This document shows positions 6,490-32,986 of a stretch of 33,025 bases of DNA, in pieces (position 1 is the stretch's first letter; each line of letters begins with the position of its first letter). The notes below the pieces were generated by a model. That model worked only from the letters and a program-made list of their open reading frames with translations, was not told the origin of the DNA and did not search any database. The position numbers and the translations under genes are program-made. Source of the stretch: a bacterium (GTDB lineage: Bacteria > Krumholzibacteriota > Krumholzibacteriia > LZORAL124-64-63); NCBI GenBank assembly GCA_030654305.1, contig JAURXS010000245.1, forward strand, positions 1-33,025. Reading direction: 5' to 3'.

Positions 6490-7452
6490 TCAATCGCCGA
6501 GGTGCAGGTTCAGCAGCGGCAGCCAGCGGGCGCCGCGGCGGTTGTTCCCGGCGTGGTTGAGCAGGCCGATCTGGACCCCGTGCAATTCGGCGGCGTGGTT
6601 GACGATGCCGATCTGCAGACCCTGCACGCCGACGTCGAAGCGGTTGTAGGCGCCGACGCCGACCCCCGTCAGGACGTCGCCGCGCAGGTAGGCCCCGCAG
6701 GCGGCCAGACCGGCGAACCGGTCGGCGTGCAGGCCGCCGCCGGCGACGGCGACGCCGGTCAGGCTCTCGCCGCCGGCGCCGAGACCGGCGAGGAGCAGGC
6801 CGGTCATCCGCTCGCCGCCGACGCCCAGGCCGGCGAGGAACAGACCGGTCAGGTCCTCGCCGCCGACGCCCAGACCGCCGACCATGATGCCGGTCATCCG
6901 TTCGCCGCCGACGCCCAGGCCGCCGACCATGACGCCGGTCATCCGTTCGCCGCCGACGCCCAGGCCGCCGACCATGACGCCAGTCAGCCGGTCGCCGCCG
7001 AGACCCAGCCCGCCGACGACGATCCCCGTCAGGTCTTCGCCGCCGAACCCGAGCCCGCCCAGGCCGAGCCCCGTGAAATCGTCGGCGCCGGCGCCCAGGC
7101 CGCCGACCGCCACGCCGCGCACGCGGCCCGCGCCGCAGCCCAGCAGGTTGAGCGTGATGCCGTCGATCTCGTCGGCGGCCGTGCCGGCCAGGCCGAGGCT
7201 CAGGCCCTGGATGCGGCCGGTGGGTTCGCGGGCGGGCGCCCACAGCGTGACGGTCACGCCCCGGATCGTCTGCAGGTCGCGGTCGCGGAAGTTGAACCGC
7301 AGGCCCGTGAAGGACCGCGAGTTGCCGAAGGACAGGCCGGCGCCGCGCACGGGCAGGTCCAGGGAGCCGGCGACCACGGGCGCGGCCGCCGCGAGCGACA
7401 GCAGCAGGACGAACAGCGGGGTACGGGAGCGGGAGAGTCGGGGCGCGGTCAT
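6490..7452 (-). CDS. Secreted Gly-rich repeat protein (about 14 tandem 15-residue repeats; possible beta-solenoid surface protein, reminiscent of Leptospira LA_2272-type surface repeats)
   Basis: Signal peptide MTAPRLSRSRTPLFVLLLSLAAAAPVVAG. Repeats have the form G(V/L/I)x(V/L)GGLGxGGExxT, ending with GLQIGIVNHAAELHGVQIGLLNHAGNN. The family assignment is from memory and tentative. Confidence 0.8.
   Translation of the reverse strand: MTAPRLSRSRTPLFVLLLSLAAAAPVVAGSLDLPVRGAGLSFGNSRSFTGLRFNFRDRDLQTIRGVTVTLWAPAREPTGRIQGLSLGLAGTAADEIDGITLNLLGCGAGRVRGVAVGGLGAGADDFTGLGLGGLGFGGEDLTGIVVGGLGLGGDRLTGVMVGGLGVGGERMTGVMVGGLGVGGERMTGIMVGGLGVGGEDLTGLFLAGLGVGGERMTGLLLAGLGAGGESLTGVAVAGGGLHADRFAGLAACGAYLRGDVLTGVGVGAYNRFDVGVQGLQIGIVNHAAELHGVQIGLLNHAGNNRRGARWLPLLNLHLGD
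6665..7204. repeat. Coding tandem repeat, about 12 units of 45 bp, within the Gly-rich protein gene
   Basis: Unit starts recur every 45 bp (6665, 6710, 6755, 6800, 6845, 6890, 6935, 6980, 7025, 7070, 7115, 7160). Units 6890-6934 and 6935-6979 are identical (ccggtcatccgttcgccgccgacgcccaggccgccgaccatgacg). Confidence 0.85.
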
Positions 7453-7612: not shown

Positions 7613-7882
7613 CTACCAGCCCGACCGCTCCTGACGCGGCTCGCGCGGGCGCGCTTCGTTGACGGTCAGGGCGCGGCCGTCGAACTCCTTGCCGTTCAAC
7701 TCGTCGATGGCGCGGCGGCCGGCGTCGTCCGCGGCCATGATCACGAAACCGAAGCCGCGGGGGCGGCCGGTCTCCTTGTCGGTGATCAGGGTCACGTCCT
7801 CGACCTGGCCGTAGGTGGCGAAGAGGGCCTGGATCTCCTCCTCGGAGGAGCGGAAATTGAGATTGCCCACGTAGATCTTCAC
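7613..7882 (-). CDS. RNA-binding protein with a single RRM (RNP-1/RNP-2) domain
   Basis: MKIYVGNLNFRSSEEEIQALFATYGQVEDVTLITDKETGRPRGFGFVIMA... The RNP-2 (IYVGNL) and RNP-1 (RGFGFV) motifs are present. Length 89 aa. Confidence 0.9.
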   Translation of the reverse strand: MKIYVGNLNFRSSEEEIQALFATYGQVEDVTLITDKETGRPRGFGFVIMAADDAGRRAIDELNGKEFDGRALTVNEARPREPRQERSGW

Positions 7883-15894: not shown

Positions 15895-17211
15895 TTGCCC
15901 GCCACCATCGGCATCCGACTCGAGGACAAGAGCAAGTGGGAGCGACGCGTCCCCCTGACGCCGGCCGACGCGGCCGGCATCCAGGCCTGCTTCGGGCACC
16001 GCCTGGTCGTGCAGCCGTCGCCCATCCGCGTCTTCACCGACCGGGAGTACCGCGAGGCCGGGATCGAGGTCTCGGACGCCGCGCTGGACGCGGACATCGT
16101 GATCGCGGTGAAGGAGATCCCGCCGGCGCTGTACCGCCCGGGCCGGGTGTACGTCAACTTCGCGCACGTCATCAAGGGCCAGGCGCGCAACATGCCGCTG
16201 CTGCGCGAGTACCTGCGGCAAGGCTGCACGCTGGTGGACTACGAGTGCATCGCCGACGAGCACAACCGCCGGCTGATCTTCTTCAGCGTGCACGCCGGCT
16301 ACGCCGGCGCGATCGAGGCGCTGCGCGCGCTGGGGCTGCGCCTGCTGGGGCGCGGCGTCGCGACGCCCCTGGCGGAGATCCGCCCGCCCCACGCCTACGG
16401 CGACCTCACGGAGGCCGAGGCGCACCTGCGCGGGATCGGCGAGCGGCTGCGCACCGAGCGGCTGCCCGGGGGCCTGCCGCTGACGATCGGCGTCGCCGGC
16501 TATGGCAACGTGGCCCGCGGCGTGCAGACGGTCCTGTCCTGGCTGCCGGTCGCCCGGGTCGCTCCCGAGGACCTGCCGGCCGCAGCGCGCGCGCCCTCGG
16601 CGGAGCCCCTGCTCGCCTGCGTGTTCAAGGAGCAGGACATGGTGCGCACCCGCGACGGCCGGCCGTTCGAGCTGCACGACTACTACGACCGCCCCGAGGG
16701 CTACGAGGGCCGCTTCGCCGAGCACCTGCCGCACCTCGACCTGCTCGTCAACACCATCTTCTGGACGGAGCGCTACCCCCGCCTGCTGACCGCCGCCTGG
16801 GCGGCCGAGCAGTTCCGCGACGGGCGCGAGCCGCGCCTGCAGGTCGTCGGCGACATCAGCATCGACATTGAGGGCAGCATCGAGATCAGCGTCAAGGCGA
16901 CGCAGCCCGACGTTCCCTGCTACGTGGTGGACCCGGTCGCGGGCGAGGTGCGCGACGGCGTCGACGGGCGCGGCATCGCCGTGATGGCGGTCGACAACCT
17001 GCCCTGCGAGCTGCCGCGCGAGGCGAGCGAGCACTTCAGCACCGTGCTGAAGGACATGGTCGGCGACCTGGGCAACTGCGACTGGTCGGCCGAGTTCGTG
17101 GACCTGGACCTGCCGCCGCACCTCAAGCGCGCGGTGATCGTCCACCGGGGCGAGCTGGCGCCGCGCTACGCCCACCTCGCCGGGTACCTCGAACGCGGGA
17201 GCCGCGCATGA
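15895..17211 (+). CDS. Lysine-ketoglutarate reductase (saccharopine dehydrogenase, L-lysine-forming type; homolog of the AASS N-terminal half)
   Basis: TTG start after GGAGG (15884-15888). IGIRLEDKSKWERRVPLTPADAAGI..., FAHVIKGQARNMPLLREYLRQGCTLVDYECIADEHNRRLIFFSVHAGYAGAIEALRALGLRLL, VGDISIDIEGSIE and VDNLPCELPREASEHF closely parallel the LKR half of animal AASS as I recall it. Confidence 0.9.
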   Translation: MPATIGIRLEDKSKWERRVPLTPADAAGIQACFGHRLVVQPSPIRVFTDREYREAGIEVSDAALDADIVIAVKEIPPALYRPGRVYVNFAHVIKGQARNMPLLREYLRQGCTLVDYECIADEHNRRLIFFSVHAGYAGAIEALRALGLRLLGRGVATPLAEIRPPHAYGDLTEAEAHLRGIGERLRTERLPGGLPLTIGVAGYGNVARGVQTVLSWLPVARVAPEDLPAAARAPSAEPLLACVFKEQDMVRTRDGRPFELHDYYDRPEGYEGRFAEHLPHLDLLVNTIFWTERYPRLLTAAWAAEQFRDGREPRLQVVGDISIDIEGSIEISVKATQPDVPCYVVDPVAGEVRDGVDGRGIAVMAVDNLPCELPREASEHFSTVLKDMVGDLGNCDWSAEFVDLDLPPHLKRAVIVHRGELAPRYAHLAGYLERGSRA

Positions 17212-18557
17212 AGAAGGTGCTGGTCCTGGGCGCGGGCATGGTGGCCCGGCCGCTGGTGCGCTACCTGCTGGAGCGCGGCTTCGGCGTGACCCAGGGCGAT
17301 GTCGCGCCCGAGCGGGCGTCGGCGATGGTCGACGACCACCCCCACGGCCGGGCGCTGGCCCTGGACCTGCGCGACACCGCGGCGGTGGCGTCGCTGGTGG
17401 CCGAACACGACCTGACGGTCAGCCTGGCCCCGCCGCCCTTCCATCCCGCCGTGGCCCGCCTCTGCGTGGAGGCCGGGCGCCACCTGGCCACCGCGTCCTA
17501 CGTCGCGCCCGAGATGGCGTCCCTGGACGCCGCCGCCCGTGAGCGGGGCGTGCTGCTGCTCAACGAGATCGGCGTGGATCCGGGCATCGACCACATGTCC
17601 GCGATGCGCGTCATCGACGGCGTGCGTGCCCGCGGCGGCCGCATCCTGTCCTTCCGCTCGTACTGCGGCGGGCTGCCGGCGCCGGAGGCCAACGACAATC
17701 CCTTCGGCTACAAGTTCTCCTGGGCGCCCCGCGGCGTGCTGATGGCCGGCCGCAACGACGCCCACTACCTGGTCGACGGCGCGCGGGTCACGGTGCCCGG
17801 AGCGAGGCTGTTCCGCGACATGCGCCTGCTGCACGTCGAGGGGGCCGGGGACTTCGAGGCCTACCCCAACCGCGACTCGATCTCCTACATCGACATCTAC
17901 GGCCTGCAGGGGATCCGCACCATGCTGCGCGGCACGCTGCGCAACCCGGGCTGGTGCGACTGCCTGCACAACTACGGGCGCCTCGGCCTGCTCGGGATCG
18001 AGCCGGTCGACCTCGCCGGCGCGACGTCGGCGGACCTGCTGCGCCGCCTGGCCGGGGCCGCGCCGGGGGAGGCCGCCGACGCCGCGGTCGCCCGCTGCCT
18101 GGGCCTGTGCCGCGACGCGCTGCCGGTCGCGAACCTGCGCTGGCTGGGGCTCTGCGACGAGACCCCCCTGGGGCGCGAGCGCGGCTGCCCGCTGGACGTC
18201 CTGGGCGACGCCATGCTGGCGAAGCTGGTCTACGCCCCCGGCGAGCGGGACCTGCTGGTGATGAAGCACGAGTTCACGGCGGCCCTGCCCGACGGCGGCC
18301 GCGAGTCGATCACCTCCAGCCTGGTCGCCTACGGCGAGCCCGGCGGCGACTCGGCGATGGCCCGCACGGTCTCGCTGCCGCTGGCCGTGGGGGTGCGCCT
18401 GGTGCTGGAGGGCGGGATCGCGGCCCGCGGCGTGGCGCGACCGGTGACGGCGGAATTCTACCGGCCGATCCTCGACGAGCTCGAGGGGCACGGCATCGTT
18501 TGCCAGGAGAAGACGGAACGTATCGACCGGGACACCGGAGACGAGGGAGGCGAGTGA
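17208..18557 (+). CDS. Saccharopine dehydrogenase (L-glutamate-forming; homolog of the AASS C-terminal half)
   Basis: MKKVLVLGAGMVARPLVRYL..., IGVDPGIDHMSAMRVID, SYCGGLPAPEANDNPFGYKFSWAPRGVLMAG, EAYPNRDS, LRGTLRNPGW. There is an ATGA start/stop overlap with the LKR gene. Confidence 0.9.
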   Translation: MKKVLVLGAGMVARPLVRYLLERGFGVTQGDVAPERASAMVDDHPHGRALALDLRDTAAVASLVAEHDLTVSLAPPPFHPAVARLCVEAGRHLATASYVAPEMASLDAAARERGVLLLNEIGVDPGIDHMSAMRVIDGVRARGGRILSFRSYCGGLPAPEANDNPFGYKFSWAPRGVLMAGRNDAHYLVDGARVTVPGARLFRDMRLLHVEGAGDFEAYPNRDSISYIDIYGLQGIRTMLRGTLRNPGWCDCLHNYGRLGLLGIEPVDLAGATSADLLRRLAGAAPGEAADAAVARCLGLCRDALPVANLRWLGLCDETPLGRERGCPLDVLGDAMLAKLVYAPGERDLLVMKHEFTAALPDGGRESITSSLVAYGEPGGDSAMARTVSLPLAVGVRLVLEGGIAARGVARPVTAEFYRPILDELEGHGIVCQEKTERIDRDTGDEGGE

Positions 18558-18559
18558 CC

Positions 18560-20104
18560 ATGGCGACGCGTCAGCAGGTGAACAGGATCTTCAAGGCGCT
18601 GGATCTCGGGCGCGAGCTCAAGGGCGCCAACGCCGGCGGCGAGTGGTTCGCCGACAGCGGCGATTTCCTGGACGTCGTGGACCCGACGACCGGCGCGGTG
18701 ATCGCGCGCGTCGAGCAGGCTTCCGCGAAGGACTACGAGAAGCTGATGCGCAAGGCCGAGGCGGCCTTCGTCCTCTGGCGCGAGGTGCCCGCCCCGCGGC
18801 GCGGCGAGGTCGTGCGGCAGCTGGGCGAGGCCCTGCGCGCGAAGAAGGAGGCGCTCGGGCAGCTGGTCTCCCTCGAGATGGGCAAGATCCTCACCGAGGG
18901 CCTGGGCGAGGTCCAGGAGATGATCGACATCTGCGACTACGCCGTCGGCCAGAGCCGCATGCTCAGCGGCCCGACCCTGCAGAGCGAGCGCCCCCGGCAC
19001 CGCATGATGGAGCAGTGGCACCCGCTGGGCGTCGTCGGCGTCGTCACCGCCTTCAACTTCCCGGTCGCGGTCTGGGCCTGGAACAACGCCCTGGCCTGGG
19101 TCTGCGGCGACGTCGCCGTCTGGAAGCCCTCGAGCAAGACGCCGCTGTGCGCCATCGCCTGCCAGAACATCGCCAACGAGGTGTTCCGCCGCAACGGCGT
19201 GCCGCAGGGCGTGTCCTGCGCGGTGGTCGGGCGCGGCGCGGTCATCGGCGAGCGCCTGGTCGCGGACGAGCGCGTGCCGCTGATCTCGGCCACCGGCAGC
19301 ACCCGCATGGGCAAGCGCATCGGCGCCGTGGTGGGCGAGCGCCTCGGCCGCACCATCCTCGAGCTGGGCGGCAACAACGCGCTGGTCATCTCGGAGAAGG
19401 CCGACCTGACCTGCGCGCTGGCCAGCGCCTTCTTCGGCGCCGTCGGCACCGCCGGGCAGCGCTGCACCTCGACCCGCCGCCTGATCGTCCACGAGTCGAT
19501 CTACGACGTGTTCCTCAAGAAGCTCGTCGCCAACTACAAGAAGGTGCGCATCGGCGACCCCCTGGACCCCGCGACGCTGATGGGGCCGCTGATCGACGAG
19601 GGCGCCGTGGCCGACTACGAGGCGGCGGTCAAGGCGGCGAAGGAGCAGGGCGGCCGCGTCGTCTACGGCGGCAAGGTGATGGACCCGCCGTTCGGCCACC
19701 GGACCTTCGTCCTGCCGACGATCGTCGAGATCGCCAACGACGCGGCGATCGTGCAGACGGAGACCTTCGCGCCCATCGTCTACGTCATGAAGTACCGCGG
19801 CTTCGACGAGGCGCTGGCCCTGCACAACGGCGTGCCCCAGGGGCTGTCGTCGGGGATCTTCACCGACAGCGTGTCCGAGGCCGAGACGTTCACCAGCTTC
19901 CGCGGCTCGGACTGCGGAATCGCCAACGTGAACATCGGCACCTCGGGCGCGGAGATCGGCGGCGCCTTCGGCGGCGAGAAGGAGACCGGCGGCGGCCGCG
20001 AGTCGGGCTCCGACTGCTGGAAGAGCTACATGCGCCGCCAGACCAACACGATCAACTGGGGCGGCGAGGTCCACCTGGCGCAGGGAGTCGAATTCCATCC
20101 CTGA
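18560..20104 (+). CDS. Alpha-aminoadipic semialdehyde (piperideine-6-carboxylate) dehydrogenase, ALDH7 family
   Basis: ATG 18560, 2 nt after the SDH stop. MATRQQVNRIFKALDLGRELKGANAGGEWF..., EMGKILTEGLGEVQEMIDICDYAVGQSRML, ELGGNNA and GTAGQRCTSTRRLIVHESIYD are typical ALDH7A1/AmaB-type motifs. Confidence 0.9.
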   Translation: MATRQQVNRIFKALDLGRELKGANAGGEWFADSGDFLDVVDPTTGAVIARVEQASAKDYEKLMRKAEAAFVLWREVPAPRRGEVVRQLGEALRAKKEALGQLVSLEMGKILTEGLGEVQEMIDICDYAVGQSRMLSGPTLQSERPRHRMMEQWHPLGVVGVVTAFNFPVAVWAWNNALAWVCGDVAVWKPSSKTPLCAIACQNIANEVFRRNGVPQGVSCAVVGRGAVIGERLVADERVPLISATGSTRMGKRIGAVVGERLGRTILELGGNNALVISEKADLTCALASAFFGAVGTAGQRCTSTRRLIVHESIYDVFLKKLVANYKKVRIGDPLDPATLMGPLIDEGAVADYEAAVKAAKEQGGRVVYGGKVMDPPFGHRTFVLPTIVEIANDAAIVQTETFAPIVYVMKYRGFDEALALHNGVPQGLSSGIFTDSVSEAETFTSFRGSDCGIANVNIGTSGAEIGGAFGGEKETGGGRESGSDCWKSYMRRQTNTINWGGEVHLAQGVEFHP

Positions 20105-20138
20105 CCGGGGCGACGGGCGGTGCAACACGGAGGCGACG

Positions 20139-23135
20139 ATGGCGACACGGGCCTCGCGCGACCAAGCCATCGAGGAGGCCTGGTCCCGCCTCAAGGACAT
20201 CACCTACGACCGCGAGGCCGGCTTCGAGCAGCTGATCAAGCACCGTGTCCGCAACATCCTGCTCGTGGCCAGCCTCTACGACGCCTTCACCCTGGAGGAG
20301 GGCGGGCGGCTCACCGAGGTCGTGCTGGCGGAGTACCGCGAGCTGAACCTGAGCGCCGCCCCCCAGATCCGGCGCGCCATCAGCGGCGAGGAGGCGCTGG
20401 CCCTCCTGGAGGCCAGCGGCTACGACCTGCTGCTGACCATGACCCGGCTCGGGGACATGGACGCCTGCACCCTGGCCCGCCGGGCCAAGGCGATCAAGCC
20501 CGACCTGCCGGTCGTCGTGCTGGGCTACAACGACCGCGAGCTGGAGGCGCTCGCCGACCGGGACGCCGGGGCCGTCGACCGCTCCTTCATCTGGACCGGC
20601 GACGTGCGGCTGCTCCTGGCCATCGTCAAGCAGGTCGAAGACCGCTGGAACGTCGACGACGACACGCGCACCAGCGACGTGCGCTGCATCCTGCTGGTGG
20701 AGGACTCGGTCCGCTTCTACTCGGCCTACCTGCCCATGCTGTACACCGAGGTCATGCGTCAGACCCAGGAGCTGATGGCCGACAGCGTCAACCTGTCGCA
20801 GAAGCTGCTGCGCATGCGCGCCCGCCCGAAGATCCTGTTCGCCACGGACTTCGAGCAGGCGATGGACCTCTACGGGCGCTACCGCGACTACCTGCTGGGC
20901 GCCGTCTGCGACGCCCGGTTCCCCCGCGAAGGCCAGCTGCGCGCCGACGCCGGCCTCGAGCTGGTGCGGCGCCTGAAGCAAGACGACCCGCTGCTGCCGG
21001 TGGTCATCCAGTCTTCCGATCCTGAAGGCCGCGCGGCGGCGGAGGCGGCCGGCGCCCGGTTCCTGCACAAGCAGTCGACCAGCCTGCTGAAGGAGCTGCG
21101 CGGCTTCATGCGCGAGGAGTTCGGCTTCGGCGACTTCGTCTTCCGCCTGCCCGACGGCACCGAGGTGGGGCGCGCCCACAACTCGCGCGCCCTGATGCGC
21201 GAGATCGCCCGCGTGCCCGACGAATCGCTGCTGTTCCACGCGCGCCGCGACCAGTTCTCCAACTGGTTCCGCGCCCGCACCAAGTTCGGCCTGGCCAACC
21301 TGATCAAGCCGCTGAAGGCGAGCCAGTTCGCCTCGGCCGGCGAGCTGCGCGAGTTCCTGCTCGAGACGGTCGGCTGGTACCGCGAGCAGTCCCGGCGCGG
21401 CGTGATCGCGGACTTCTCGCGGCGCGAGTTCGACGCGGCCGGCGGCTTCACGCGCCTGGGCACCGGCTCGCTCGGCGGCAAGGCCCGCGGCCTGGCCTTC
21501 ATGAACCACGTCCTGAGCCGCTACGGCATCGGCGAGCAGTTCCCGGGGCTGCGGCTGCGGGTGCCCCCGACCGCGGTCCTCGCCACGGACGTCTTCGACG
21601 CCTTCCTGGACCAGGGCCAGCTGCGGGAGCTGGCCCTGCAATCCGACGACGACGGGGCCGTCGCCGCGGCCTTCCTGGCCGCGGAGCTGCCCGCCTCCAT
21701 CCACGACGACCTGCGCATCTTCCTGGAGCAGGTGCGCTACCCGCTGGCGGTCCGCTCGTCCAGCCAGCTGGAGGACGCGCAGCACCAGCCCTTCGCGGGC
21801 GTCTACAAGACCTACATGATCCCCAACTCGCACCCCGACCTCGCGGTGCGCCTCGACCAGCTGTGCCAGGCCATCAAGCTGGTCTACGCCTCGACCTTCA
21901 CCCGGGGCGCGAAGACCTACCTGGCCGCCACGAGCAACCGGGTGGAAGAGGAGAAGATGGGGGTGATCATCCAGCAGGTGGTCGGCCGCCGCCACGAGCA
22001 CTGGGTGTACCCCGATTTCGCCGGCGTGGCCCACTCGACCAACCACTACCCGACGGACGCCATGCGCCCCGAGGACGGCGTGGCGCTGGTGGCCCTGGGC
22101 CTGGGCCGCACCGTGGTGGAGGGCGGCCAGTGCCTGCGCTTCTCGCCGCGCGCGCCCCGCCGCCTCTACCAGTTCTCGACCATCGACGACACGCTCGCCA
22201 ACAGCCAGCGCACGTTCCAGGCCCTGGACGTGGGCGATCCCGAGGCCTACCCGTCCCTGCGCGAGGACGCCAACGTGGACGTGCTCGGGCTGGACGTCGC
22301 CGAGCGGCACGGCACCCTGCACGCCGTGGGTTCGGTCTACGCGCCCGAGAACGACGCCGTCTACGACGGGCTGGGGCGGGAGGGGCCCCGCCTGGTGACC
22401 TTCGCCCACGTCCTGAAGTCGGACCTCTACCCCCTGGCCGACGTGCTCGTCTTCCTGCTGGAGCTGGGCCGGCGCTGCATGAGCTGCGCCGTGGAGCTGG
22501 AGTTCGCGGCGAACCTGCCGGCCGGCGACGAGCCGGCGGAGTTCGGGCTGCTGCAGATCCGGCCGCTGGCGGCCGAGATGGCCTCGCCGCGCATCCCCGA
22601 CGGCCTGGCCGCGCGCCCCGACGTCGTGATCGCCACGGACGTGGCGCTGGGGAACGGGACCTACGACGACATCCACGACGTGGTGCTGGTGGACCCCGGC
22701 CGCTTCGACCGCGGCTGCACGCTGGAGATCGCCCGGGAGGTCGGCGAACTCGACCGCCGCCTGCGCGCGGACGGGCGGCCCTACCTGCTGATCGGGCCGG
22801 GCCGCTGGGGCTCCAGCGACCGCTGGCTGGGCATCCCGGTGGAGTGGTCGCAGATCTCCGGCGCGGCGGTGATCGTCGAGACCGACCTCGACGACTTCCG
22901 CGTCACCCCGAGCCAGGGGACGCACTTCTTCCAGAACCTGACGTCGTTCCGGGTGGGGTACCTGACCGTCAACGCCAGCAGCGGCGGGGGCAAGCTCGAC
23001 TGGGACTGGCTGCTCGGCCAGGCGCCCGCCGCGCGCTCGGCCCACCTCAACCACCTGCGCCTCGAGGCGCCCCTGCAGGTGCTGATCGACGGGCGTTCCC
23101 GCCGCGGCGTGGTGCTGCGGCCGCAGTCCGCCTGA
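20139..23135 (+). CDS. PPDK_N-type (PEP/pyruvate-binding, ATP-grasp) protein with N-terminal degenerate receiver, an intact-looking receiver, and an unassigned conserved C-terminal domain (paralog A)
   Basis: GGAGG (20129-20133) before the ATG. The REC1-like region has Thr at the acceptor position (DLLLTMTRLGDMDA). REC2 has LLVEDS...GAVCDARFP...VVIQSS...FLHKQ. ATP-grasp motifs: GSLGGKARGLAFM, AVRSSSQLEDAQHQPFAGVYKTY, MGVIIQQVVG, ALGLGRTVVEGG, VELEFA...LLQIRPL. C-terminal domain: LLIGPGRWGSSDRWLGIPVEWSQIS...VIVE...SQGTHFFQNL. Confidence 0.9.
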   Translation: MATRASRDQAIEEAWSRLKDITYDREAGFEQLIKHRVRNILLVASLYDAFTLEEGGRLTEVVLAEYRELNLSAAPQIRRAISGEEALALLEASGYDLLLTMTRLGDMDACTLARRAKAIKPDLPVVVLGYNDRELEALADRDAGAVDRSFIWTGDVRLLLAIVKQVEDRWNVDDDTRTSDVRCILLVEDSVRFYSAYLPMLYTEVMRQTQELMADSVNLSQKLLRMRARPKILFATDFEQAMDLYGRYRDYLLGAVCDARFPREGQLRADAGLELVRRLKQDDPLLPVVIQSSDPEGRAAAEAAGARFLHKQSTSLLKELRGFMREEFGFGDFVFRLPDGTEVGRAHNSRALMREIARVPDESLLFHARRDQFSNWFRARTKFGLANLIKPLKASQFASAGELREFLLETVGWYREQSRRGVIADFSRREFDAAGGFTRLGTGSLGGKARGLAFMNHVLSRYGIGEQFPGLRLRVPPTAVLATDVFDAFLDQGQLRELALQSDDDGAVAAAFLAAELPASIHDDLRIFLEQVRYPLAVRSSSQLEDAQHQPFAGVYKTYMIPNSHPDLAVRLDQLCQAIKLVYASTFTRGAKTYLAATSNRVEEEKMGVIIQQVVGRRHEHWVYPDFAGVAHSTNHYPTDAMRPEDGVALVALGLGRTVVEGGQCLRFSPRAPRRLYQFSTIDDTLANSQRTFQALDVGDPEAYPSLREDANVDVLGLDVAERHGTLHAVGSVYAPENDAVYDGLGREGPRLVTFAHVLKSDLYPLADVLVFLLELGRRCMSCAVELEFAANLPAGDEPAEFGLLQIRPLAAEMASPRIPDGLAARPDVVIATDVALGNGTYDDIHDVVLVDPGRFDRGCTLEIAREVGELDRRLRADGRPYLLIGPGRWGSSDRWLGIPVEWSQISGAAVIVETDLDDFRVTPSQGTHFFQNLTSFRVGYLTVNASSGGGKLDWDWLLGQAPAARSAHLNHLRLEAPLQVLIDGRSRRGVVLRPQSA

Positions 23136-23166
23136 ACCGCGCGGCGAACCAACCACGAGGTGCACG

Positions 23167-24456
<1,290 letters not shown>

Positions 24457-24481
24457 GCCGGGCGACCGGGGAGGGAACGAC

Positions 24482-26224
24482 GTGACGATGATCTCCCGGG
24501 ACGCCGTGCCCGCGTTCGACCGCCGTTTCTTCGACGGCGCCGATGCCGTGTCGCGCATCGGGGAGGGGGAGCTCGGCGGCAAGGCGGCCGGCCTCGCGCT
24601 CATGGCGCGGGACATCCTGGGCCGCTTCGACGGCGCCGCGTGCCCGGGCATCCGGGTCGACGTGCCGCGGCTGGTGGTCCTGACCACCGACGTCTTCCGC
24701 GCCTTCGTGGACCAGAACGACCTGGCGGACGCGGTCTACGGCGGCGCCCCCGACGACCGCATCGCCCACGCCTGCCAGCGCGCGGAGCTGCCGGCCCAGT
24801 TCGTCGGTGACCTGCGCGCCCTGATCGACGGCGTGCACTCGCCGCTGGCGGTGCGCTCGTCGAGCCTGCTGGAGGACGCGCTGGAGCACCCGTTCGCCGG
24901 CGTCTACGCCACCAAGATGATCCCGAACCACCGGCTCGACCCGGACGGCCGCTTCCGCAAGCTGGCCGAGGCGATCAAGTTCGTCATCGCCTCGACCTTC
25001 TTCCGCCAGCCGCGCGACTACATGCGCTCGATCGGCCGCGACCCCCGCGAGGAGGCGATGGCGGTCGTGGTGCAGGAGATCGTCGGCCGGCGCCGCGGCG
25101 ACCTCTTCTACCCCTGCCTCTCGGGCGTCGGCCGCTCCTACAGCTACTACCCCATCGGCCGCGCGCGCCCCGAGGACGGCGTCGTCAACCTGGCCCTCGG
25201 CCTGGGCAAGGCGATCGTCGACGGCGGCCTGACCTGGTCCTACTCGCCGGCCCGGCCGCGCGTCGGCCCGCCCTTCAACGGGCTGGGCGACATGGTCAAG
25301 AACACCCAGACCTCGTTCTGGGGCGTGAACATGGGGACGCCGCCGCCGCCCGACCCGGTGCGCGAGACGGAGTTCCTGGTGAGCTCGGACCTGGCCCGCG
25401 CGGAGGCCGACGGCGCCCTGGACCACCTGGTGTCCACCTTCGACCCGGCCAGCGACCGCCTGCGCTGCGGCCTGCTGCCCGGCGGCGCGCGCGTGCTGGA
25501 CTTCTCGCCCATCCTGGACGCCGGCGTGCTGCCGCTGAACGAGGCGGTGAAGCAGATGCTGGGCCTGGCGAAGGCGGCCCTCGGCGCCGACGTGGAGATC
25601 GAGTTCGCGCTGACCTTCGGCGAGGGCGGCGCGCCCGCGCGGCTGGGCCTGCTGCAGGCGCGGCCCATGCAGGTGGCCGTCGGCGAGGTGACCGTCGGCG
25701 AGGACGAGCTGGACGGCCCGGGAGTCCTGCTGTCCTCGGAGATCGTGCTGGGGCACGGCGCCCGCGCCGACCTGCGGGACGTCGTCTACGTGAAGCCGGC
25801 CGCCTTCGAGGCCCGCCACACGCCGCGCATCGCCGCGGAGCTGGAGCGCATCAACGCCGGCCTGCTGGCCGAGGGGCGGACCTGCCTGCTGATCGGCTTC
25901 GGCCGCTGGGGCAGCTCCGATCCCTGGCTGGGCGTGCCGGTGGACTGGAGCCAGATCTCCCAGGCCCGCGTCGTGGTCGAGGCCACGCTGCCGGACATGA
26001 GCCCCGACCTGAGCCAGGGCTCCCATTTCTTCCACAACCTGATCAGCTTCGGCGTGCAGTACCTGTCGGTGCCGCACACCGGCGGCCGGGCCGTCGACTG
26101 GGCCTGGCTGGACGCGCTGCCGGCCGAGCACGAGGGCGAACTCGTGCGCCACGTCCGCACCCCGCGACCGTTGGACGTCCGCGTCGACGGGCGCGCCCGC
26201 AGGGGAGTGATCCGCCATGACTGA
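24482..26224 (+). CDS. PPDK_N-type (ATP-grasp) protein, core only plus the conserved C-terminal domain (paralog B)
   Basis: GTG 24482 (or ATG 24488) after GAGGG (24471-24475). ELGGKAAGLALM, AVRSSSLLEDALEHPFAGVYATK, MAVVVQEIVG, ALGLGKAIVDGG, VEIEFA...LLQARPM. C-terminal: LLIGFGRWGSSDPWLGVPVDWSQIS...VVVE...SQGSHFFHNL. Confidence 0.9.
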   Translation: MTMISRDAVPAFDRRFFDGADAVSRIGEGELGGKAAGLALMARDILGRFDGAACPGIRVDVPRLVVLTTDVFRAFVDQNDLADAVYGGAPDDRIAHACQRAELPAQFVGDLRALIDGVHSPLAVRSSSLLEDALEHPFAGVYATKMIPNHRLDPDGRFRKLAEAIKFVIASTFFRQPRDYMRSIGRDPREEAMAVVVQEIVGRRRGDLFYPCLSGVGRSYSYYPIGRARPEDGVVNLALGLGKAIVDGGLTWSYSPARPRVGPPFNGLGDMVKNTQTSFWGVNMGTPPPPDPVRETEFLVSSDLARAEADGALDHLVSTFDPASDRLRCGLLPGGARVLDFSPILDAGVLPLNEAVKQMLGLAKAALGADVEIEFALTFGEGGAPARLGLLQARPMQVAVGEVTVGEDELDGPGVLLSSEIVLGHGARADLRDVVYVKPAAFEARHTPRIAAELERINAGLLAEGRTCLLIGFGRWGSSDPWLGVPVDWSQISQARVVVEATLPDMSPDLSQGSHFFHNLISFGVQYLSVPHTGGRAVDWAWLDALPAEHEGELVRHVRTPRPLDVRVDGRARRGVIRHD

Positions 26225-29200
26225 CGACCGCGACCCGACGCTGGCCCAGCTGCTGGTCTCGCTGCAGGAGCGCTCGAAGGAGCTGGACTGCCTCTACCGC
26301 ATCGAGGAACTGTTCGCGGAACAGGGGAAATCGCGGCAGGACGTCTGTCGCGGCGTGGCCGAGGCCCTCGTCACCGGCATGCAGTACCCGACCATCTGCC
26401 AGGCCGAGGTGGCGTGCGACGGCGTCGTGCACCGCACCGAGAACGGCCCGCGCACGCCCTGCCACCTGCGCGCCGAGATCCTGGTGCAGGAGCAGATGAC
26501 GGGGGAGGTCTGCGTCTACTACACCGGCTCGTGCCCCGACGTGGGCGACGGCCCCTTCCTGAAGGAGGAGCGGCGCCTGCTGAAATCGGTGGCCGACCGC
26601 CTGGCCCACTACGTCCTCTTCGAGCGCCTGCGGGACCTGCGCAAGGTGCGCGCGCACGTCCGCGAGGACGGGATCGAAGAGCCGCTGTGGCTGATGCCCA
26701 TCCAGATGCTGCGCGAGTCGGACCCCCACCTCCACCAGAGCATCGCGCGCAAGCTGCTGAACCTGCTCTGCTCGATGGGCGTCGACGAGGCCCAGGCCAT
26801 GCTCGGGCGCGTGGACTCCGTGGTGTCGGCCGAGACGGTCTCCGGCGAGGTGAACGTGCCGGGCGTCGTCCAGAAGCGCGACGAGTCCGTGCTGCTGTCG
26901 GACGCGCCGTTCTTCATGGCCGCGCGCCACATGACCGACCACGAGATCCTGCTGAAGGTCCAGAAGTGGATCCAGGACGACCGCGCCGGCCTCTTCCTGA
27001 AGATCCTGGACAACCCGCGCACGACCCTGCCCGAGCTGGCTGACGCGCTGCGCCGCTACCACCACCTGGTGGGCGAGGGTTCCTCGCTGCAGCCCTCGAC
27101 GGTCACCAACATGCACGTCTCGCTGGTGCGGCGCTTCCTCACCGAGCAGCTCGACTACATCAAGGTCGCCAAGGAGTTCGTGACGGTCGCCGACCTGCGC
27201 GCCCTGGTCGACCGCCTGATCATGCCCGTGGACGGCACCGGCAAGCTGGGCGGCAAGGGCTCGGGCCTGATCCTCGCCGAGCGCATCCTGGCCCGCGCCT
27301 CCACGCCGGACCGGCCCGTCGGCGAGGTCCACGTCCCGCGCACCTGGTACCTGGCGTCCGACGCCACGCTGGAGTTCATCGCGCACAACGACCTCGAGGA
27401 CGTCATCGAGCAGAAGTACAAGGAGATCGGGCAGGTCCGGCAGGAGTACCCCAACATCATCCAGCTCTTCAAGCACTCGCCGCTGCCGCCGCACCTGCGC
27501 CAGGGCCTGGCCGCGGCGCTGGACGACCTGGGCGAGGTGCCGCTGATCGTGCGCAGCTCCAGCCTGCTCGAGGACCGCTTCGGCACCTCGTTCTCCGGCA
27601 AGTACAAGAGCCTGTTCCTGCCCAACCAGGGCGAGCGCGGCGAGCGCCTCGACGCCCTCTGCGACGCCATCACCGAGATCTACGCCTCGGTGTTCGGGCC
27701 CGACCCCGTCGAGTACCGCCGCGACCGCGGCCTGCTGGACTTCAGCGAGGAGATGGGGATCCTGATCCAGGAGGTCGTGGGCCGCCGCGTCGGCCGCTAC
27801 TTCCTGCCGGCCTTCGCCGGCGTGGCCTTCAGCCGCAACGAGTTCCGCTGGTCGCCGCGGATCCGGCGCGACGACGGCCTGATCCGCCTGGTGCCCGGGC
27901 TGGGCACGCGCGCCGTCGACCGCGTCGGCGACGACTTTCCGGTGCTGGCGGTGCCGGGCCAGCCCAACCTGCGGGTGAACGTGGAGCTCGAGGAGATCGT
28001 GCGCTACGCGCCGAACAAGATCGACGTCATCGACCTCGAGCAGAACGCCTTCGTCACGCTGTCGATCGCCGACCTGCTGCGCGAGGTGGGCGGCCGCTAC
28101 CCGGGTCTCGAGCTGGTGTTTTCGCAGCTGAACGAGGGCATGCTGCAGCGCCCGCGGCGCCTGATGTTCGACGCCGCGCACGACGAGCTGGTGGCGACCT
28201 TCGACGGCCTGATCAACGGCACGCCCTTCGTGCGCCACCTGCGCAACGTGCTGGTGATCCTCGAGGAGAAGCTGGGCACGCCGGTGGACATCGAGTTCGC
28301 CCACGACGGCGAGCGGTTCTACCTGCTGCAGTGCCGGCCCCAGAGCCACACCGACGACGCCGCCCCGGCGCCGATCCCCAAGAACCTGCCGGTCAAGGAC
28401 GTCCTGTTCACGGCCGACCGGCACGTGTCCAACGGCTGGATGCCCGACGTCACCCACGTGGTCTACGTCGACCCCGACGCCTACGCGTCGCTCGAGGACC
28501 GCGCGAGCATGCTGGCGGTGGGGCGCGCGATCGGCGACCTGAACAAGCTGCTGCCGAAGCGCTGCTTCATCCTGATGGGCCCCGGCCGCTGGGGCAGCCG
28601 CGGCGACATCAAGCTGGGCGTGAGCGTGACCTACGCGGACATCAGCCACACCTCGATGCTGGTGGAGATCGCGCGGCAGAAGGGCGGCTACCTGCCCGAC
28701 CTCTCCTTCGGGACCCACTTCTTCCAGGACCTGGTGGAGGCACGCATCCGCTACCTGCCGCTGTACCCGGACCGCGACGGCATCGTGTTCAACGAGCAGT
28801 TCCTGCTGGGGGCGCGCAACCTGCTGCCCGAGCTGCTGCCCCAGTACGCCGAGCTCGCGGGCACGCTGCGGGTGATCGACGTGCCGGCCGAGGCCGGGGG
28901 GCGCGTGCTGCGCGTGCTGATGAACGCCGACCTCGACGAGGCCCTCGCCTGCTTCGTCGAGCCGGGGCAGGAGCGCGGCACGGGCGCCGACGCGGCGGCC
29001 GAGCTGATCGGCCAGCCCGGCGAGGTCTGGCGCTGGCGCCTGCAGATGGCCGAGCGCATCGCGCGCGACGTCGACGCGGCGCGCTTCGGCGTCAAGGCGA
29101 TGTACGTCTTCGGCAGCGTGAAGAACGCGACGGCCGGCCCGGCCAGCGACATCGACCTGCTGGTCCACATGGAGGACGACCCGGTGCGGCAGGCGGCCCT

Positions 29201-29402
29201 GCGGGTCTGGCTCGACGGCTGGAGCCGCTGCCTGGCGGAGATCAACTACCTGCGCACCGGCTACCGCAGCTCCGGGCTGATCGACGCGCACCTGATCACC
29301 GACCGGGATATCGCCGAGCGGTCGAGCTTCGCCGTGAAGATCGGCGCGATCACCGACCCGGCCCGCGAGCTCCACCTCGGCGGCGGCGACGAGCCGGCCT
29401 GA
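26217..29402 (+). CDS. Multidomain protein: Cys-rich N-terminal sensor-like (GAF-like?) domain, helical region, PPDK_N ATP-grasp, conserved C-terminal domain, and terminal Pol-beta-type nucleotidyltransferase domain (paralog C)
   Basis: The ATG overlaps the paralog B stop by 8 nt. The N-terminus KELDCLYRIEELF... carries 7 Cys in 110 aa. ATP-grasp motifs: KLGGKGSGLILA, IVRSSSLLEDRFGTSFSGKYKS, MGILIQEVVG, PGLGTRAVD, VDIEFA...YLLQCRP. Shared domain: ILMGPGRWGSRGDIKLGVSV...IS...LVE...SFGTHFFQDL. NTase motif: YVFGSVKNATAGPASDIDLLVH (29112-29156). Confidence 0.9.
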   Translation: MTDDRDPTLAQLLVSLQERSKELDCLYRIEELFAEQGKSRQDVCRGVAEALVTGMQYPTICQAEVACDGVVHRTENGPRTPCHLRAEILVQEQMTGEVCVYYTGSCPDVGDGPFLKEERRLLKSVADRLAHYVLFERLRDLRKVRAHVREDGIEEPLWLMPIQMLRESDPHLHQSIARKLLNLLCSMGVDEAQAMLGRVDSVVSAETVSGEVNVPGVVQKRDESVLLSDAPFFMAARHMTDHEILLKVQKWIQDDRAGLFLKILDNPRTTLPELADALRRYHHLVGEGSSLQPSTVTNMHVSLVRRFLTEQLDYIKVAKEFVTVADLRALVDRLIMPVDGTGKLGGKGSGLILAERILARASTPDRPVGEVHVPRTWYLASDATLEFIAHNDLEDVIEQKYKEIGQVRQEYPNIIQLFKHSPLPPHLRQGLAAALDDLGEVPLIVRSSSLLEDRFGTSFSGKYKSLFLPNQGERGERLDALCDAITEIYASVFGPDPVEYRRDRGLLDFSEEMGILIQEVVGRRVGRYFLPAFAGVAFSRNEFRWSPRIRRDDGLIRLVPGLGTRAVDRVGDDFPVLAVPGQPNLRVNVELEEIVRYAPNKIDVIDLEQNAFVTLSIADLLREVGGRYPGLELVFSQLNEGMLQRPRRLMFDAAHDELVATFDGLINGTPFVRHLRNVLVILEEKLGTPVDIEFAHDGERFYLLQCRPQSHTDDAAPAPIPKNLPVKDVLFTADRHVSNGWMPDVTHVVYVDPDAYASLEDRASMLAVGRAIGDLNKLLPKRCFILMGPGRWGSRGDIKLGVSVTYADISHTSMLVEIARQKGGYLPDLSFGTHFFQDLVEARIRYLPLYPDRDGIVFNEQFLLGARNLLPELLPQYAELAGTLRVIDVPAEAGGRVLRVLMNADLDEALACFVEPGQERGTGADAAAELIGQPGEVWRWRLQMAERIARDVDAARFGVKAMYVFGSVKNATAGPASDIDLLVHMEDDPVRQAALRVWLDGWSRCLAEINYLRTGYRSSGLIDAHLITDRDIAERSSFAVKIGAITDPARELHLGGGDEPA

Positions 29403-29406
29403 TCCC

Positions 29407-30249
29407 CTAGAGCAGGGCGCGCGCGGCCGCGTCGGGGTCGTCGGGGTCGAAGCGCATCAGGGCCAGCTCCGGCCCGTCGTGGGCGCCGTTGCAGGCCAGG
29501 GTGTCGCCGATCGTCGCGCGCCAGGCGCCGGTCAGCCGCGCGGCCTCGTGCACGTGGCCGTGCAGCGACAGCGGCGGCCGCCGCGCCTCGAGGAACCTGC
29601 GGATCGCGATGCTCCCGATGTGCACGTCCAGCGGCACGTGGTCGACCGACCTGCCGTCCAGGGCGGCGCGGTCCAGGTCGCAGCCGTACGGCGGGCAGTG
29701 GAACAGGCAGACCGCGCGCGACAGGTCCCCGTCTCCCGCCAGCTCGTCCAGCTCCGCCGCGATCGTCGCCAGCCGGATCTCGCGCTCGTCGCGCGCGACG
29801 GTGCGCCGTCCCTCCTCCGGCGACAGGCAGCCGGGATCCACGTAGCGCGACACGTCGTAGCGCTCCCAGTCCTTGAGCAGGAACGGCGAGGGGGGGATGC
29901 AGGCGTAGCCCAGCACGCTCCGGTCGCCCCAGGCGACGCGCCGGCCGTGCGCCTGGATCCAGAGCCCCTCGTGTTCGCCCGCGGCGAGGCCGGGCAGCTC
30001 GTCGGCGGGATCGTCGTTGCCGGGGATGAGGAAGACCGCGGGGTAGGCGGCGCCCAGGCTCGCGCGCAGGCGGCGGAAGCCGGCGGCCAGCACTTCGGCG
30101 ACGAAATCGCCGCCGGCGACCAACCGGTGCGGCAGCAGGTCGCCGCCCAGGAACAGGGCGGCGGGGCGTTCGGCGGCGGCCGCGTCCCAGAGCTTGCGGT
30201 AGCGGTCCGGGCGGCCGTGCAGGTCGGTCGCGAAGTGGCAGAGGCCCAT
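29407..30249 (-). CDS. Metallophosphoesterase (calcineurin-like)
   Basis: LCHFATDLHG, FLGGDLLPH, LIPGNDDP, LFHCPPYG and LHGHVHE. Preferred start is ATG at 30249 (GGGAGG 6 nt upstream on the minus strand). Alternative starts are 30255 and 30276; the longest ORF reaches 30384. Convergent with paralog C, with a 4-nt gap. Confidence 0.8.
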   Translation of the reverse strand: MGLCHFATDLHGRPDRYRKLWDAAAAERPAALFLGGDLLPHRLVAGGDFVAEVLAAGFRRLRASLGAAYPAVFLIPGNDDPADELPGLAAGEHEGLWIQAHGRRVAWGDRSVLGYACIPPSPFLLKDWERYDVSRYVDPGCLSPEEGRRTVARDEREIRLATIAAELDELAGDGDLSRAVCLFHCPPYGCDLDRAALDGRSVDHVPLDVHIGSIAIRRFLEARRPPLSLHGHVHEAARLTGAWRATIGDTLACNGAHDGPELALMRFDPDDPDAAARALL

Positions 30250-30397
30250 GCCCATCCTCCCTCGGTCGGCGGCCATGGTGCGCCCCGCGCCGGCGACGCG
30301 CAACCACGGATCAACCAGGAGTGGAACACGCCTGTATCCGGGCCGGAACGGTCGGCGCGGCATGTGCATCCGCCGGTGCGGCATCTGTGAATAATGT

Positions 30398-32010: not shown

Positions 32011-32116
32011 CGGCCGCTCACGTGCAGTCGGAGGGGGAGCGGCCCCCCTGGAGCGCACCTACGCGGCATGATATGATGGCTCTCTAGGATGTCACCCATG
32101 CTTGGAGGTGTCCGTG

Positions 32117-32749
32117 ATGCGTACGATCCGAGTGTCGGTCGCGGCCGTGCTCCTAGCCGCGCTGGCGGGGACCGCCGTTGCCGCGGACTACTGGCCGCTG
32201 ACGCCGGGGGCGACCTTCACCTACCAGTGGTCCGACGGGCCCCTGAACGTCGAGATCCTGCAGAACTCCAATCCGGCTTGGTTTTCCAGGAGCTACACGA
32301 GCGCCCAATGCGCCGGATCCGGAACCTATCGACTCGACGACGACGGGGACGTCCTGTGGGGCGGGTCCGGCTGGGTGTGCAAGTCCTGGGTCGACCCCGA
32401 CTACTTCACGCTCACGCCGCCGGTGCTGTTCCTGGACCTGCCGCTCACGGTCGGCAAGCAGTGGCAGAGCGAGACGACGGTCGACTACGGCTACGGCTCC
32501 TTCGCAGCAACGCTCCACTGCTCCGTGACCGGCACGGAAACGGTCACGACGCCGGCCGGCGACTTCGAGACGATGGTGATGCAGATGATCACGTTCGACG
32601 GCCCCTGGTTCCTGCGTCAGTGGACCTACAAGCTGCACCGGCAGCTCGGCCCGGTGATCGACGAGGGCGGAGAACTGGTCGACTGGACCGGCGTCTTATC
32701 GTCCGACGAGTCGACCTGGGGCGAAGTCAAAGCGCTCTACGCCCGCTGA
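32117..32749 (+). CDS. Secreted hypothetical protein
   Basis: ATG 32117, 8 nt after GGAGG (32104-32108). MRTIRVSVAAVLLAALAGTAVAADYWPL... Signal peptide present and composition is ordinary. The C-terminus ends ...STWGEVKALYAR. Confidence 0.75.
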   Translation: MRTIRVSVAAVLLAALAGTAVAADYWPLTPGATFTYQWSDGPLNVEILQNSNPAWFSRSYTSAQCAGSGTYRLDDDGDVLWGGSGWVCKSWVDPDYFTLTPPVLFLDLPLTVGKQWQSETTVDYGYGSFAATLHCSVTGTETVTTPAGDFETMVMQMITFDGPWFLRQWTYKLHRQLGPVIDEGGELVDWTGVLSSDESTWGEVKALYAR

Positions 32750-32790
32750 ACCGTTCCTCCGCCGGTTGCACCAGTTCCGGCTGCGAAATC

Positions 32791-32986
32791 GTCCCTGCCA
32801 TGCCCATGCTGCTGTTCGACTCGGATCCGCACATCCTGCCGAGACAGGGGTGTCCTGCAGGCCCTGGAGCCAGGATGGCGGAAGGGCCGGAAGGCCAAGC
32901 GAGTCGGGCACAGGATGTGCCCGACGAGCGCCCCCTGTCTCGGCAGGATGTGCGGATCCGAGTCGCATCACAGCATGGGTAGGGAC
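32791..32986. repeat. Palindromic element E2: perfect 34-nt inverted arms (32817-32850 / 32932-32965) around an 81-nt spacer, with imperfect outer extensions. Homologous to E1 but in the opposite orientation
   Basis: Left arm cgactcggatccgcacatcctgccgagacagggg. Right arm cccctgtctcggcaggatgtgcggatccgagtcg. Inner hairpin gtcgggcaca/gga/tgtgcccgac. The outer extensions begin gtccct (32791) and end agggac (32986). Confidence 0.85.

Follow-up and report, generated by a model that had tools for sequence, protein, structure and literature searches.

A widespread gene block joining dikinase-like ATP-grasp proteins to glutamate dehydrogenase: a possible covalent-modification module

Dikinase-like ATP-grasp proteins with an apparently new C-terminal domain (CTD) are encoded beside glutamate dehydrogenase (GDH) in many bacterial lineages, and we tentatively read the arrangement, with rather less than even confidence, as a module for covalent modification, driven by ATP and controlled by signals, whose action falls on GDH or passes through it. 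The stretch studied here (the window) is a 33,025-nt contig, JAURXS010000245.1 of the Krumholzibacteriota assembly GCA_030654305.1, in which three paralogous proteins, A, B and C, are encoded on one strand with a GDH paralog, GDH2, between A and B (Table 1). An earlier note on this DNA, made from the sequence alone, had proposed a unit of three paralogs plus a GDH with a Lys-to-Glu change, placed after a lysine catabolic operon. The conserved unit proved to be a different one, namely GDH2 followed by B and C and usually then by a metallophosphoesterase, with A seldom alongside and with most GDH2s keeping the catalytic Lys. The strength of the conserved GDH link nevertheless favours the GDH-centred modification or signalling idea of that note. 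Literature searches aimed at the module found no description of it or of the CTD.

Relatives of B are numerous, with more than 7,800 in databases at ~60% identity, mostly labelled hypothetical or 'PEP/pyruvate-binding domain-containing'. A one-genome-per-species scan yielded at least 597 confirmed B relatives, and 80 loci were kept for synteny counts. These loci cover more than a dozen named lineages, including Eisenbacteria, Acidobacteriota, Planctomycetota, Ignavibacteriota, Bacteroidota, Calditrichota, Zixibacteria, Gemmatimonadota, Chloroflexota classes, Spirochaetaceae, Myxococcales and Krumholzibacteriota. In 63 of 69 loci a GDH2-type gene immediately precedes B on its strand, and in 2 more it is divergent, so that the adjacency of a GDH paralog holds across genomes. 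Directly downstream of B stands C (64 of 67 loci), which carries its transferase in 55 of 59 loci. The metallophosphoesterase, which the note had recorded as a following neighbour of the array, is indeed adjacent but is more than a neighbour, since it falls within the conserved block: of 51 loci, 35 encode it no more than 2.5 kb from C, and in 33 of these it is convergent, on the opposite strand. No other pathway enzymes are conserved around B in the surveyed neighbourhoods. Adjacency to the lysine operon did not generalize, as the whole operon was found only at a close relative, an activated-sludge metagenome-assembled genome (MAG; locus L008) with a B 92% identical to that of the window and the same gene order.

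Protein A supplies a second, independent link between the dikinase-like family and GDH. Scanning metagenomes with an alignment of A-type proteins brought up 80 loci, in which 64 A copies had enough upstream sequence. A GdhA-type GDH, the class of GDH1 in the window, lies directly upstream of A on the same strand in 39 of these 64 and elsewhere in the locus in 5 more, and only a few loci have A beside B and C. Because A goes with the GdhA class and B/C with the GDH2 class (32% identical), two branches of PPDK_N-plus-CTD proteins are each tied to a different class of GDH. The window and L008 merge both pairings behind the lysine catabolic operon, which is a lineage-specific arrangement. Protein A consists of a pseudo-receiver (residues ~35-165), a receiver (~178-315), a linker (~316-435), PPDK_N (444-812) and the CTD (~820-998). 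The note had seen a degenerate and an intact-looking receiver. The first matches Response_reg with 38.4 bits in the whole-protein scan (cut-off 30.2) and 27.7 bits alone, and M101 at its acceptor position makes it a pseudo-receiver. In the second, D189, D258 (acceptor), S292 and K311 are kept by each of the 5 A-type sequences aligned, from the window and four orthologs, but its Response_reg matches stay below the Pfam threshold (18-23 bits; E 1.5e-3 in the window, 1e-4 and 3e-3 in two orthologs). The linker (residues ~315-434, window 21081-21440) shows weak similarity to DUF5752, as do P0254, P0193 and P0177, above the cut-off only in P0254; a literature search found no paper on this family.

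The three paralogs share a PPDK_N core and a further domain, as the earlier note had described, although the latter measures ~180 rather than ~170 residues. PPDK_N (PF01326, cut-off 27 bits) is matched at residues 444-812 of A (4.3e-33), 30-399 of B (3.8e-32) and 343-723 of C (3.6e-59). B aligns with A by BLASTP (42% identity over 574 residues, E 1e-129) and with C (30% over 532 residues, E 2e-37), and the last ~180 residues are included in both alignments. The ATP-grasp residues GGK, VRSS, QE, E/D-I-E-F-A and L-Q-x-R-P are invariant or nearly so in the three paralogs and 33 B orthologs, and in ~80 orthologs each of B and C. In B they comprise K34, VRSSS, EIEFA and LLQARP, and the ATP-grasp lysines of A and C are K448 and K347. 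Both the ATP-grasp and the CTD motifs are also intact in the B and C of loci whose GDH2 lacks its Lys. The AlphaFold model of full-length B is confident (predicted local distance difference test, pLDDT, 87.6; predicted template-modelling score, pTM, 0.88). Foldseek matched it through the ATP-grasp part to rifampin phosphotransferase (5hv1, 3e-15), HpeI (9goj, 6e-12), phosphoenolpyruvate (PEP) synthase (2ols, 7e-11) and pyruvate phosphate dikinase (PPDK; 1kbl, 6e-8) in the PDB. The TM-score against 5hv1, normalised by query length, is 0.43 for the full length and 0.39 for the isolated ATP-binding domain and reflects the ATP-grasp part only; by sequence, B has just one marginal PDB match (5hv6, E 0.23).

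The remaining parts of a PEP synthase or PPDK are missing. Pfam found no match to the swivel domain (PF00391) or the TIM barrel (PF02896) in A, B, C or any other gene of the window. Nothing follows the CTD in B, and the unassigned regions of A and C are too short for a TIM barrel. NCBIfam PEP-synthase models score at most 69 bits on A, B and C against cut-offs of ~600-1060 (e.g. 59 against 883), and the RIF_Ptrans_rph, PigC and RedH models at most 52 bits against cut-offs of 999-1350. The note's view that these are not ordinary PEP synthases or PPDKs is therefore borne out by Pfam, profile-profile comparison and fold search. No well-characterised family with a known substrate was matched, and the proteins form an undescribed family.

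The CTD is a new domain as far as searches of Pfam, PDB sequences and PDB folds show. It occupies residues ~820-998 of A, ~402-580 of B and ~725-905 of C, follows PPDK_N directly in all 9 larger proteins examined, and carries the invariant signature GRWG...E...SxG[ST]HFF. In 20 aligned CTDs of the A, B and C types the invariant positions are G, L, G-R-x-G, D, L-G, E and S-x-G-x-H-F-F. In B they include GRWGSSD, E500 and SQGSHFF. The invariant His lies at a helix N-terminus behind a Gly-rich loop and is H515 in B (26024-26026), H929 in A (22923-22925) and H834 in C (28716-28718). An exhaustive profile search of 1.84 billion representatives placed the CTD in 2,322 clusters at 50% identity, 613 of them at E <= 1e-30. 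The 20 sequences had no Pfam match even at E <= 10, and hmmsearch against PDB sequences gave no relevant match. The CTD modelled alone (pLDDT 89.9) had no Foldseek match in the PDB at E <= 1e-3 (TM-scores <=0.29). Its weak matches include glycosidases, thioredoxin-fold proteins and some nucleotide-binding folds, and no dikinase, swivel-domain or Enzyme I structure is among the 50 best. A similar order of secondary structure and a G-[ST]-H at a helix start had suggested by eye a divergent PEP-utilizers swivel domain. That candidate was rejected, as hhalign gave a probability of 0.25% when the CTD profile was compared with 10 authentic swivel domains (E. coli PpsA, plasmid-borne PEP synthases, Enzyme I and PEP-utilizing enzymes), and neither Pfam, PDB hmmsearch nor Foldseek lent it support. 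With swivel homology unsupported, a phospho-carrier role for the CTD His is an analogy only.

The 8-nt gene overlap, near-universal adjacency and natural fusions show that B and C function together. The B-C fusion proteins P0121-P0123 (1,523-1,654 residues) each contain two CTDs by hmmsearch; P0121 has two PPDK_N domains and a nucleotidyltransferase by Pfam, and its gene is preceded by one for a 429-residue GDH. The large CTD-containing proteins comprised only B-C fusions and other N-terminal extensions, with no fusion of a GDH to A, B or C among them. Protein C is built of a GAF-like head (residues ~1-150), a helical linker (~150-335), PPDK_N (343-723), the CTD (~725-905) and a nucleotidyltransferase (~906-1061). 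The note had reported this last domain, and it is confirmed as a minimal Pol-beta-type (MNT-type) domain by NTP_transf_2 (956-990, 1.1e-6; also 9.3e-8) and by GS-x9-SDID from G966; the motif GStKNAtAGPxSDID is kept in ~70 C orthologs. Pfam matches C only to PPDK_N, NTP_transf_2 and Polbeta and, weakly and on the nucleotidyltransferase piece, to MTPAP-like and MdcG models, and the substrate-binding, HD and ACT domains of GlnE/GlnD are not among them. The head, which the note had called Cys-rich and sensor-like, stands as sensor-like and is recast as GAF-like from its orthologs, with GAF matches in 9 of 18 aligned sequences (best 1.6e-4) and GAF_3 in one (4e-5), while the window copy itself scores nothing. 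The metallophosphoesterase motifs DLHG, GGD, GNDD, LFH and LHGHxHE are intact and kept in 45 orthologs.

An anti-phage defence reading was rejected. PADLOC found nothing in A, B or GDH2, and matched only the generic nucleotidyltransferase motif of C (PDC-S09, ~31 bits) and, weakly, the phosphoesterase (PDC-S10, E 0.0038, 14.5 bits).

In the window and at L008, GDH2 lacks the catalytic Lys. It belongs to the Pyrococcus/Bacillus/Thermus-type class by PDB sequence matches and reads GGSEGG for GGxKGG, so the alignment confirms what the earlier note had seen (E108, codon GAG at 23488-23490). The other active-site positions are intact, as is the segment GFGNVA, which we take to be the dinucleotide-binding motif of GDHs. 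Because the same Glu occurs in the independent MAG of L008, the change is not a sequencing error. Among GDH2 orthologs the catalytic position holds Lys in 66, Met in 5, and Asn and Ser in 1 each, with Glu in the window and L008. There are thus 9 without Lys, the window counted; the Lys-to-Glu change is lineage-specific, and at least 4 different residues have replaced the Lys. The five Met GDH2s have lost the first substrate-binding Lys as well. A GdhA-type GDH is adjacent at 6 of 7 Lys-less loci, comprising all those with readable flanks, whereas among Lys-keeping loci the figure is 3 of 61 (Fisher p = 5e-6); with each replacement residue taken as one case, all 4 have it. In the window this enzyme, GDH1, keeps an intact GGGKGG. 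Ratios of nonsynonymous to synonymous substitution (dN/dS) are 0.036 (dS 0.56) and 0.059 for Lys-less GDH2s and 0.045 for a Lys-keeping pair. Purifying selection on the Lys-less proteins, together with intact B and C, indicates that GDH2 has a selected role without catalysis and that B/C act independently of GDH2 turnover. On these comparative measures, a role of GDH2 beyond catalysis in the Lys-less lineages is shown. A mixed hexamer of GDH2 with its competent neighbour is unlikely, as GDH1 belongs to the other class.

Individual loci vary the arrangement. Seven (L108, L118, L119, L121, L123, L127 and L145) hold tandem arrays in which two A genes are accompanied by two or three GDHs from different classes, e.g. 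A, GdhA, A and a 45%-GDH2-like gene, with the catalytic Lys intact in all GDHs. The closest metagenomic A relative (59% identity; L088:4690-11753) is followed by a Lys-keeping GDH2 and a C-like protein of which only ~180 residues match the C head. B is not present between the last two, an order in which A may replace B as the partner of C. The A ortholog at L008 (5644-8633) was matched in two reading frames, one for N-terminal and one for core segments, probably through an indel error in the long-read assembly and otherwise through a real frameshift. At L001 an extra 591-residue B-like PPDK_N protein (16597-18372) is encoded a few kb downstream of the phosphoesterase and is followed by a fragment like the N-terminus of A (19881-20654). 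In a Calditrichota MAG (CAZBBC010000152; L055:1-3069), B is followed not by C but by a saccharopine dehydrogenase homologue (Sacchrp_dh_C 5e-63) and then by an AddB-like nuclease, a second, independent adjacency of the dikinase-like family to a saccharopine-pathway gene. A GAF/HisKA histidine kinase and a sigma-54-dependent response regulator, NtrB/NtrC-like in domain content, are encoded directly 3' of C in an acidobacterial MAG (L002:6093-9096, L003:5089-8092). Just upstream of one GDH/B-C-fusion locus lie a SelO (AMPylase-family) gene and a hybrid histidine kinase (L179:347-1831, minus strand), which may be coincidental.

The covalent-modification reading that we prefer would comprise two modules, one of GDH2, B and C with the convergent metallophosphoesterase, and the other of a GdhA-type GDH with receiver-controlled A. 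B and C would form one hetero-complex, each predicted from its conserved catalytic residues to bind ATP in a catalytically complete dikinase-type ATP-grasp. The CTD may relay the phosphoryl group, most likely on its invariant His if the analogy holds, to a protein acceptor, most probably the co-encoded GDH hexamer. C would add sensory input through its GAF-like head and a second chemistry, nucleotidylylation, through its Pol-beta-type transferase, and the metallophosphoesterase would undo the modification. Protein A could do the same job on the GdhA-type enzyme under two-component control. Where GDH2 lacks its Lys, it would serve as a pseudoenzyme partner, either sensor or target of B/C, with catalysis then left to GDH1. 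Conserved motifs show the predicted active sites of the ATP-grasp, transferase and phosphoesterase to be intact, and the receiver and GAF heads of A and C are typical of signalling proteins. The most specific form of this switch is somewhat doubtful. It would have a novel non-swivel phospho-carrier domain, GDH phosphorylated on GAF or two-component signals and nucleotidylylated by C, the phosphoesterase as eraser, and GDH2 as a pseudoenzyme transducer in some lineages. Several points weigh against the modification of GDH. Phosphotransfer, a B/C-GDH complex and a modified GDH residue are predictions, and linkage in an operon to a dehydrogenase is equally expected of a metabolic pathway. Neither Pfam, hhalign nor Foldseek detects a phosphohistidine swivel domain in the CTD, and the high pTM of full-length B points to a rigidly packed protein more than to one with a domain that swings. 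Moreover, ~30% of loci have no nearby phosphoesterase, and the co-occurrence of dead GDH2 with GDH1 represents few independent events.

Three other explanations were weighed. B/C and A may instead form a small-molecule dikinase pathway that phosphorylates a metabolite tied to the GDH reaction or to amino-acid catabolism. Nucleotidyl activation would possibly come before or after this step, the CTD would bind the substrate or carry phosphate, like the rifampin-binding domain, and the phosphoesterase would act on the product. Most characterised PPDK_N enzymes have small molecules or glucans as substrates, the best fold matches of B are rifampin phosphotransferase and HpeI, and the ATP-grasp and CTD of B are modelled as one confident unit, as in a self-contained enzyme. 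The two linked GDH classes have only their reaction in common, which fits a shared metabolite, and saccharopine-pathway genes adjoin in the window and at L008, with a saccharopine dehydrogenase homologue after B in L055. This explanation nevertheless does not account for the strong purifying selection on a GDH2 that has lost its Lys, or in some lineages two Lys, beside intact B/C. The receiver and GAF heads and the nucleotidyltransferase/phosphoesterase pair fit signalling better than a catabolic step, and the conserved neighbourhood lacks further pathway enzymes. We consider a metabolite substrate unlikely. A chance placement of ordinary gluconeogenic PEP synthase or PPDK paralogs near GDH genes would suit the PPDK_N matches and the low-scoring NCBIfam PEP-synthase similarity. 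It was rejected on the absent swivel and TIM-barrel domains, which are missing from the neighbouring genes too. With the NCBIfam scores far under cut-off and synteny far too conserved for chance, it is highly improbable.

GDH2 may also be the sensor rather than the target, a 'trigger enzyme' that signals to B/C the status of glutamate, 2-oxoglutarate or NAD(P)H. In turn, B/C would modify some other protein or use the C transferase to produce a signalling nucleotide. The Lys-less GDH2 would in this case be a pure ligand sensor. Bacillus subtilis RocG, which controls GltC, is a precedent for trigger enzymes of this kind. The conservation of the GDH2 protein where catalysis is dispensable and the retention of its nucleotide-binding motif agree with sensing, as do the histidine kinase and sigma-54 regulator genes directly 3' of C in L002 and L003. 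In Thermus thermophilus a non-catalytic regulatory subunit acts within the hetero-hexameric GdhA/GdhB GDH (PMC12301742), a further precedent. On the other hand, most GDH2 orthologs are catalytically intact with no sign of another GDH elsewhere in the organism, the block encodes no conserved third-party target, and A-type proteins pair with fully intact GdhA enzymes. A sensor-only role is rather improbable.

Parts of the proposed module resemble known systems. Like rifampin phosphotransferase, PEP synthase and PPDK (EC 2.7.9.x), A, B and C have an N-terminal dikinase ATP-grasp with nucleotide-binding and catalytic motifs kept and, further towards the C-terminus, a G-[ST]-H whose invariant His stands at the start of a helix. 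Unlike them, they have no swivel domain, TIM barrel or rifampin-type substrate domain, their CTD has no Pfam or PDB relative, A and C bear additional modules (receiver, GAF-like and nucleotidyltransferase), and the genes of all three are tied to GDH. The split dikinases phenylphosphate synthase and HpeHI (4-hydroxyacetophenone) also have a stand-alone ATP-grasp subunit and two dikinase-related polypeptides side by side. In these systems the partner subunit holds the canonical swivel His domain and the substrate site, whereas B and C both have a full ATP-grasp and CTD, and no swivel subunit is encoded in the window. The GlnE/GlnD cascades share the logic of a reversible switch, with a sensor-controlled Pol-beta-type nucleotidyltransferase and a hydrolytic enzyme beside a central nitrogen-assimilation enzyme. 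They control glutamine synthetase, however, whereas here the linked enzyme is GDH, the nucleotidyltransferase is minimal, MNT-type and fused to a dikinase-like core, and the modification is a prediction. The Thermus GdhA/GdhB enzyme is of the same structural class as GDH2 (3aoe is among its PDB matches) and has a regulatory paralog, but no dikinase-like partners.

A four-gene block of GDH, ATP-grasp, nucleotidyltransferase and phosphoesterase across so many lineages points to an unstudied regulatory layer or to a new dikinase chemistry. The carrier lineages are known for the most part from MAGs, obtained from soils, sediments, groundwater and wastewater. If the covalent-modification reading is true, they (e.g. 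Acidobacteriota, Planctomycetota, Ignavibacteriota, Bacteroidota and Gemmatimonadota) would have a GDH counterpart of the GlnE/GlnD-glutamine synthetase paradigm. The known part is the ATP-grasp superfamily and the GlnE/GlnD-like logic, and there is a real chance of a new regulatory system for a central enzyme. The CTD adds a domain family of ~2,300 clusters, in which one His is invariant and for which the PDB offers no structural relative. The Lys-less GDH2s provide a natural experiment in pseudoenzyme evolution, in which the Lys was lost, selection persists and a GDH of a different class is adjacent.

Table 1. Genes of the array and its surroundings in the window, with the evidence for each assignment
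Feature	Position	Strand	Evidence
AlaDh_PNT, lysine-ketoglutarate-reductase (LKR)-like protein	15895-17211	+	Pfam
Saccharopine dehydrogenase	17208-18557	+	Pfam
L-piperidine-6-carboxylate (aminoadipate-semialdehyde) dehydrogenase	18560-20104	+	Pfam; start codon; NCBIfam NF050084 773.6 bits vs cut-off 730
Protein A, 998 aa	20139-23135	+	Pfam; ortholog alignment; BLASTP vs B
GDH2, glutamate dehydrogenase paralog, 429 aa	23167-24456	+	Pfam ELFV domains 6.6e-66, 2.2e-49; alignment; PDB sequence matches; ortholog survey
Protein B, 580 aa, minimal core	24482-26224	+	Pfam; alignments; AlphaFold model; Foldseek
Protein C, 1061 aa	26217-29402	+	Pfam; GAF matches in orthologs; ortholog motif conservation
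Metallophosphoesterase, 325 aa, convergent with C	29407-30384	-	Pfam Metallophos 3.2e-8; motifs; locus survey
GDH1, canonical NADP-specific GdhA-type GDH, 452 aa	30498-31856	+	NCBIfam NF006929 756.8 bits vs cut-off 536

The layout described in the earlier note is accurate for the window. The intergenic gaps of 34, 31 and 25 nt and the overlap of B with C agree with the open reading frames, Pfam and NCBIfam confirm the metallophosphoesterase and canonical gdhA after the array, and the three genes directly before it are assigned to the lysine-to-glutamate/aminoadipate route. The saccharopine pathway consumes 2-oxoglutarate and releases glutamate. The window has ~72% G+C, and third-position GC singles out one clear coding frame per gene, at 0.98-0.99 in the frames of A, GDH2, B and C. 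No Rfam match was found in the window, and promoter-like and terminator-like sites are not in excess of shuffled sequence. Further from the array, a 795-residue FG-GAP/ASPIC-UnbV repeat protein (1126-3513, plus strand) ends in a FlgD_ig-like domain, and the same C-terminal domain occurs on secreted proteases at related loci. An 89-residue protein (7613-7882, minus strand) consists of one RRM_1 RNA-recognition motif (2e-20). Three open reading frames (5433-6248 and 6490-7452 on the minus strand, 32089-32982 on the plus strand) have no match in Pfam (E <= 1e-3) or NCBIfam (1e-5); the first two have third-position GC of the coding type.

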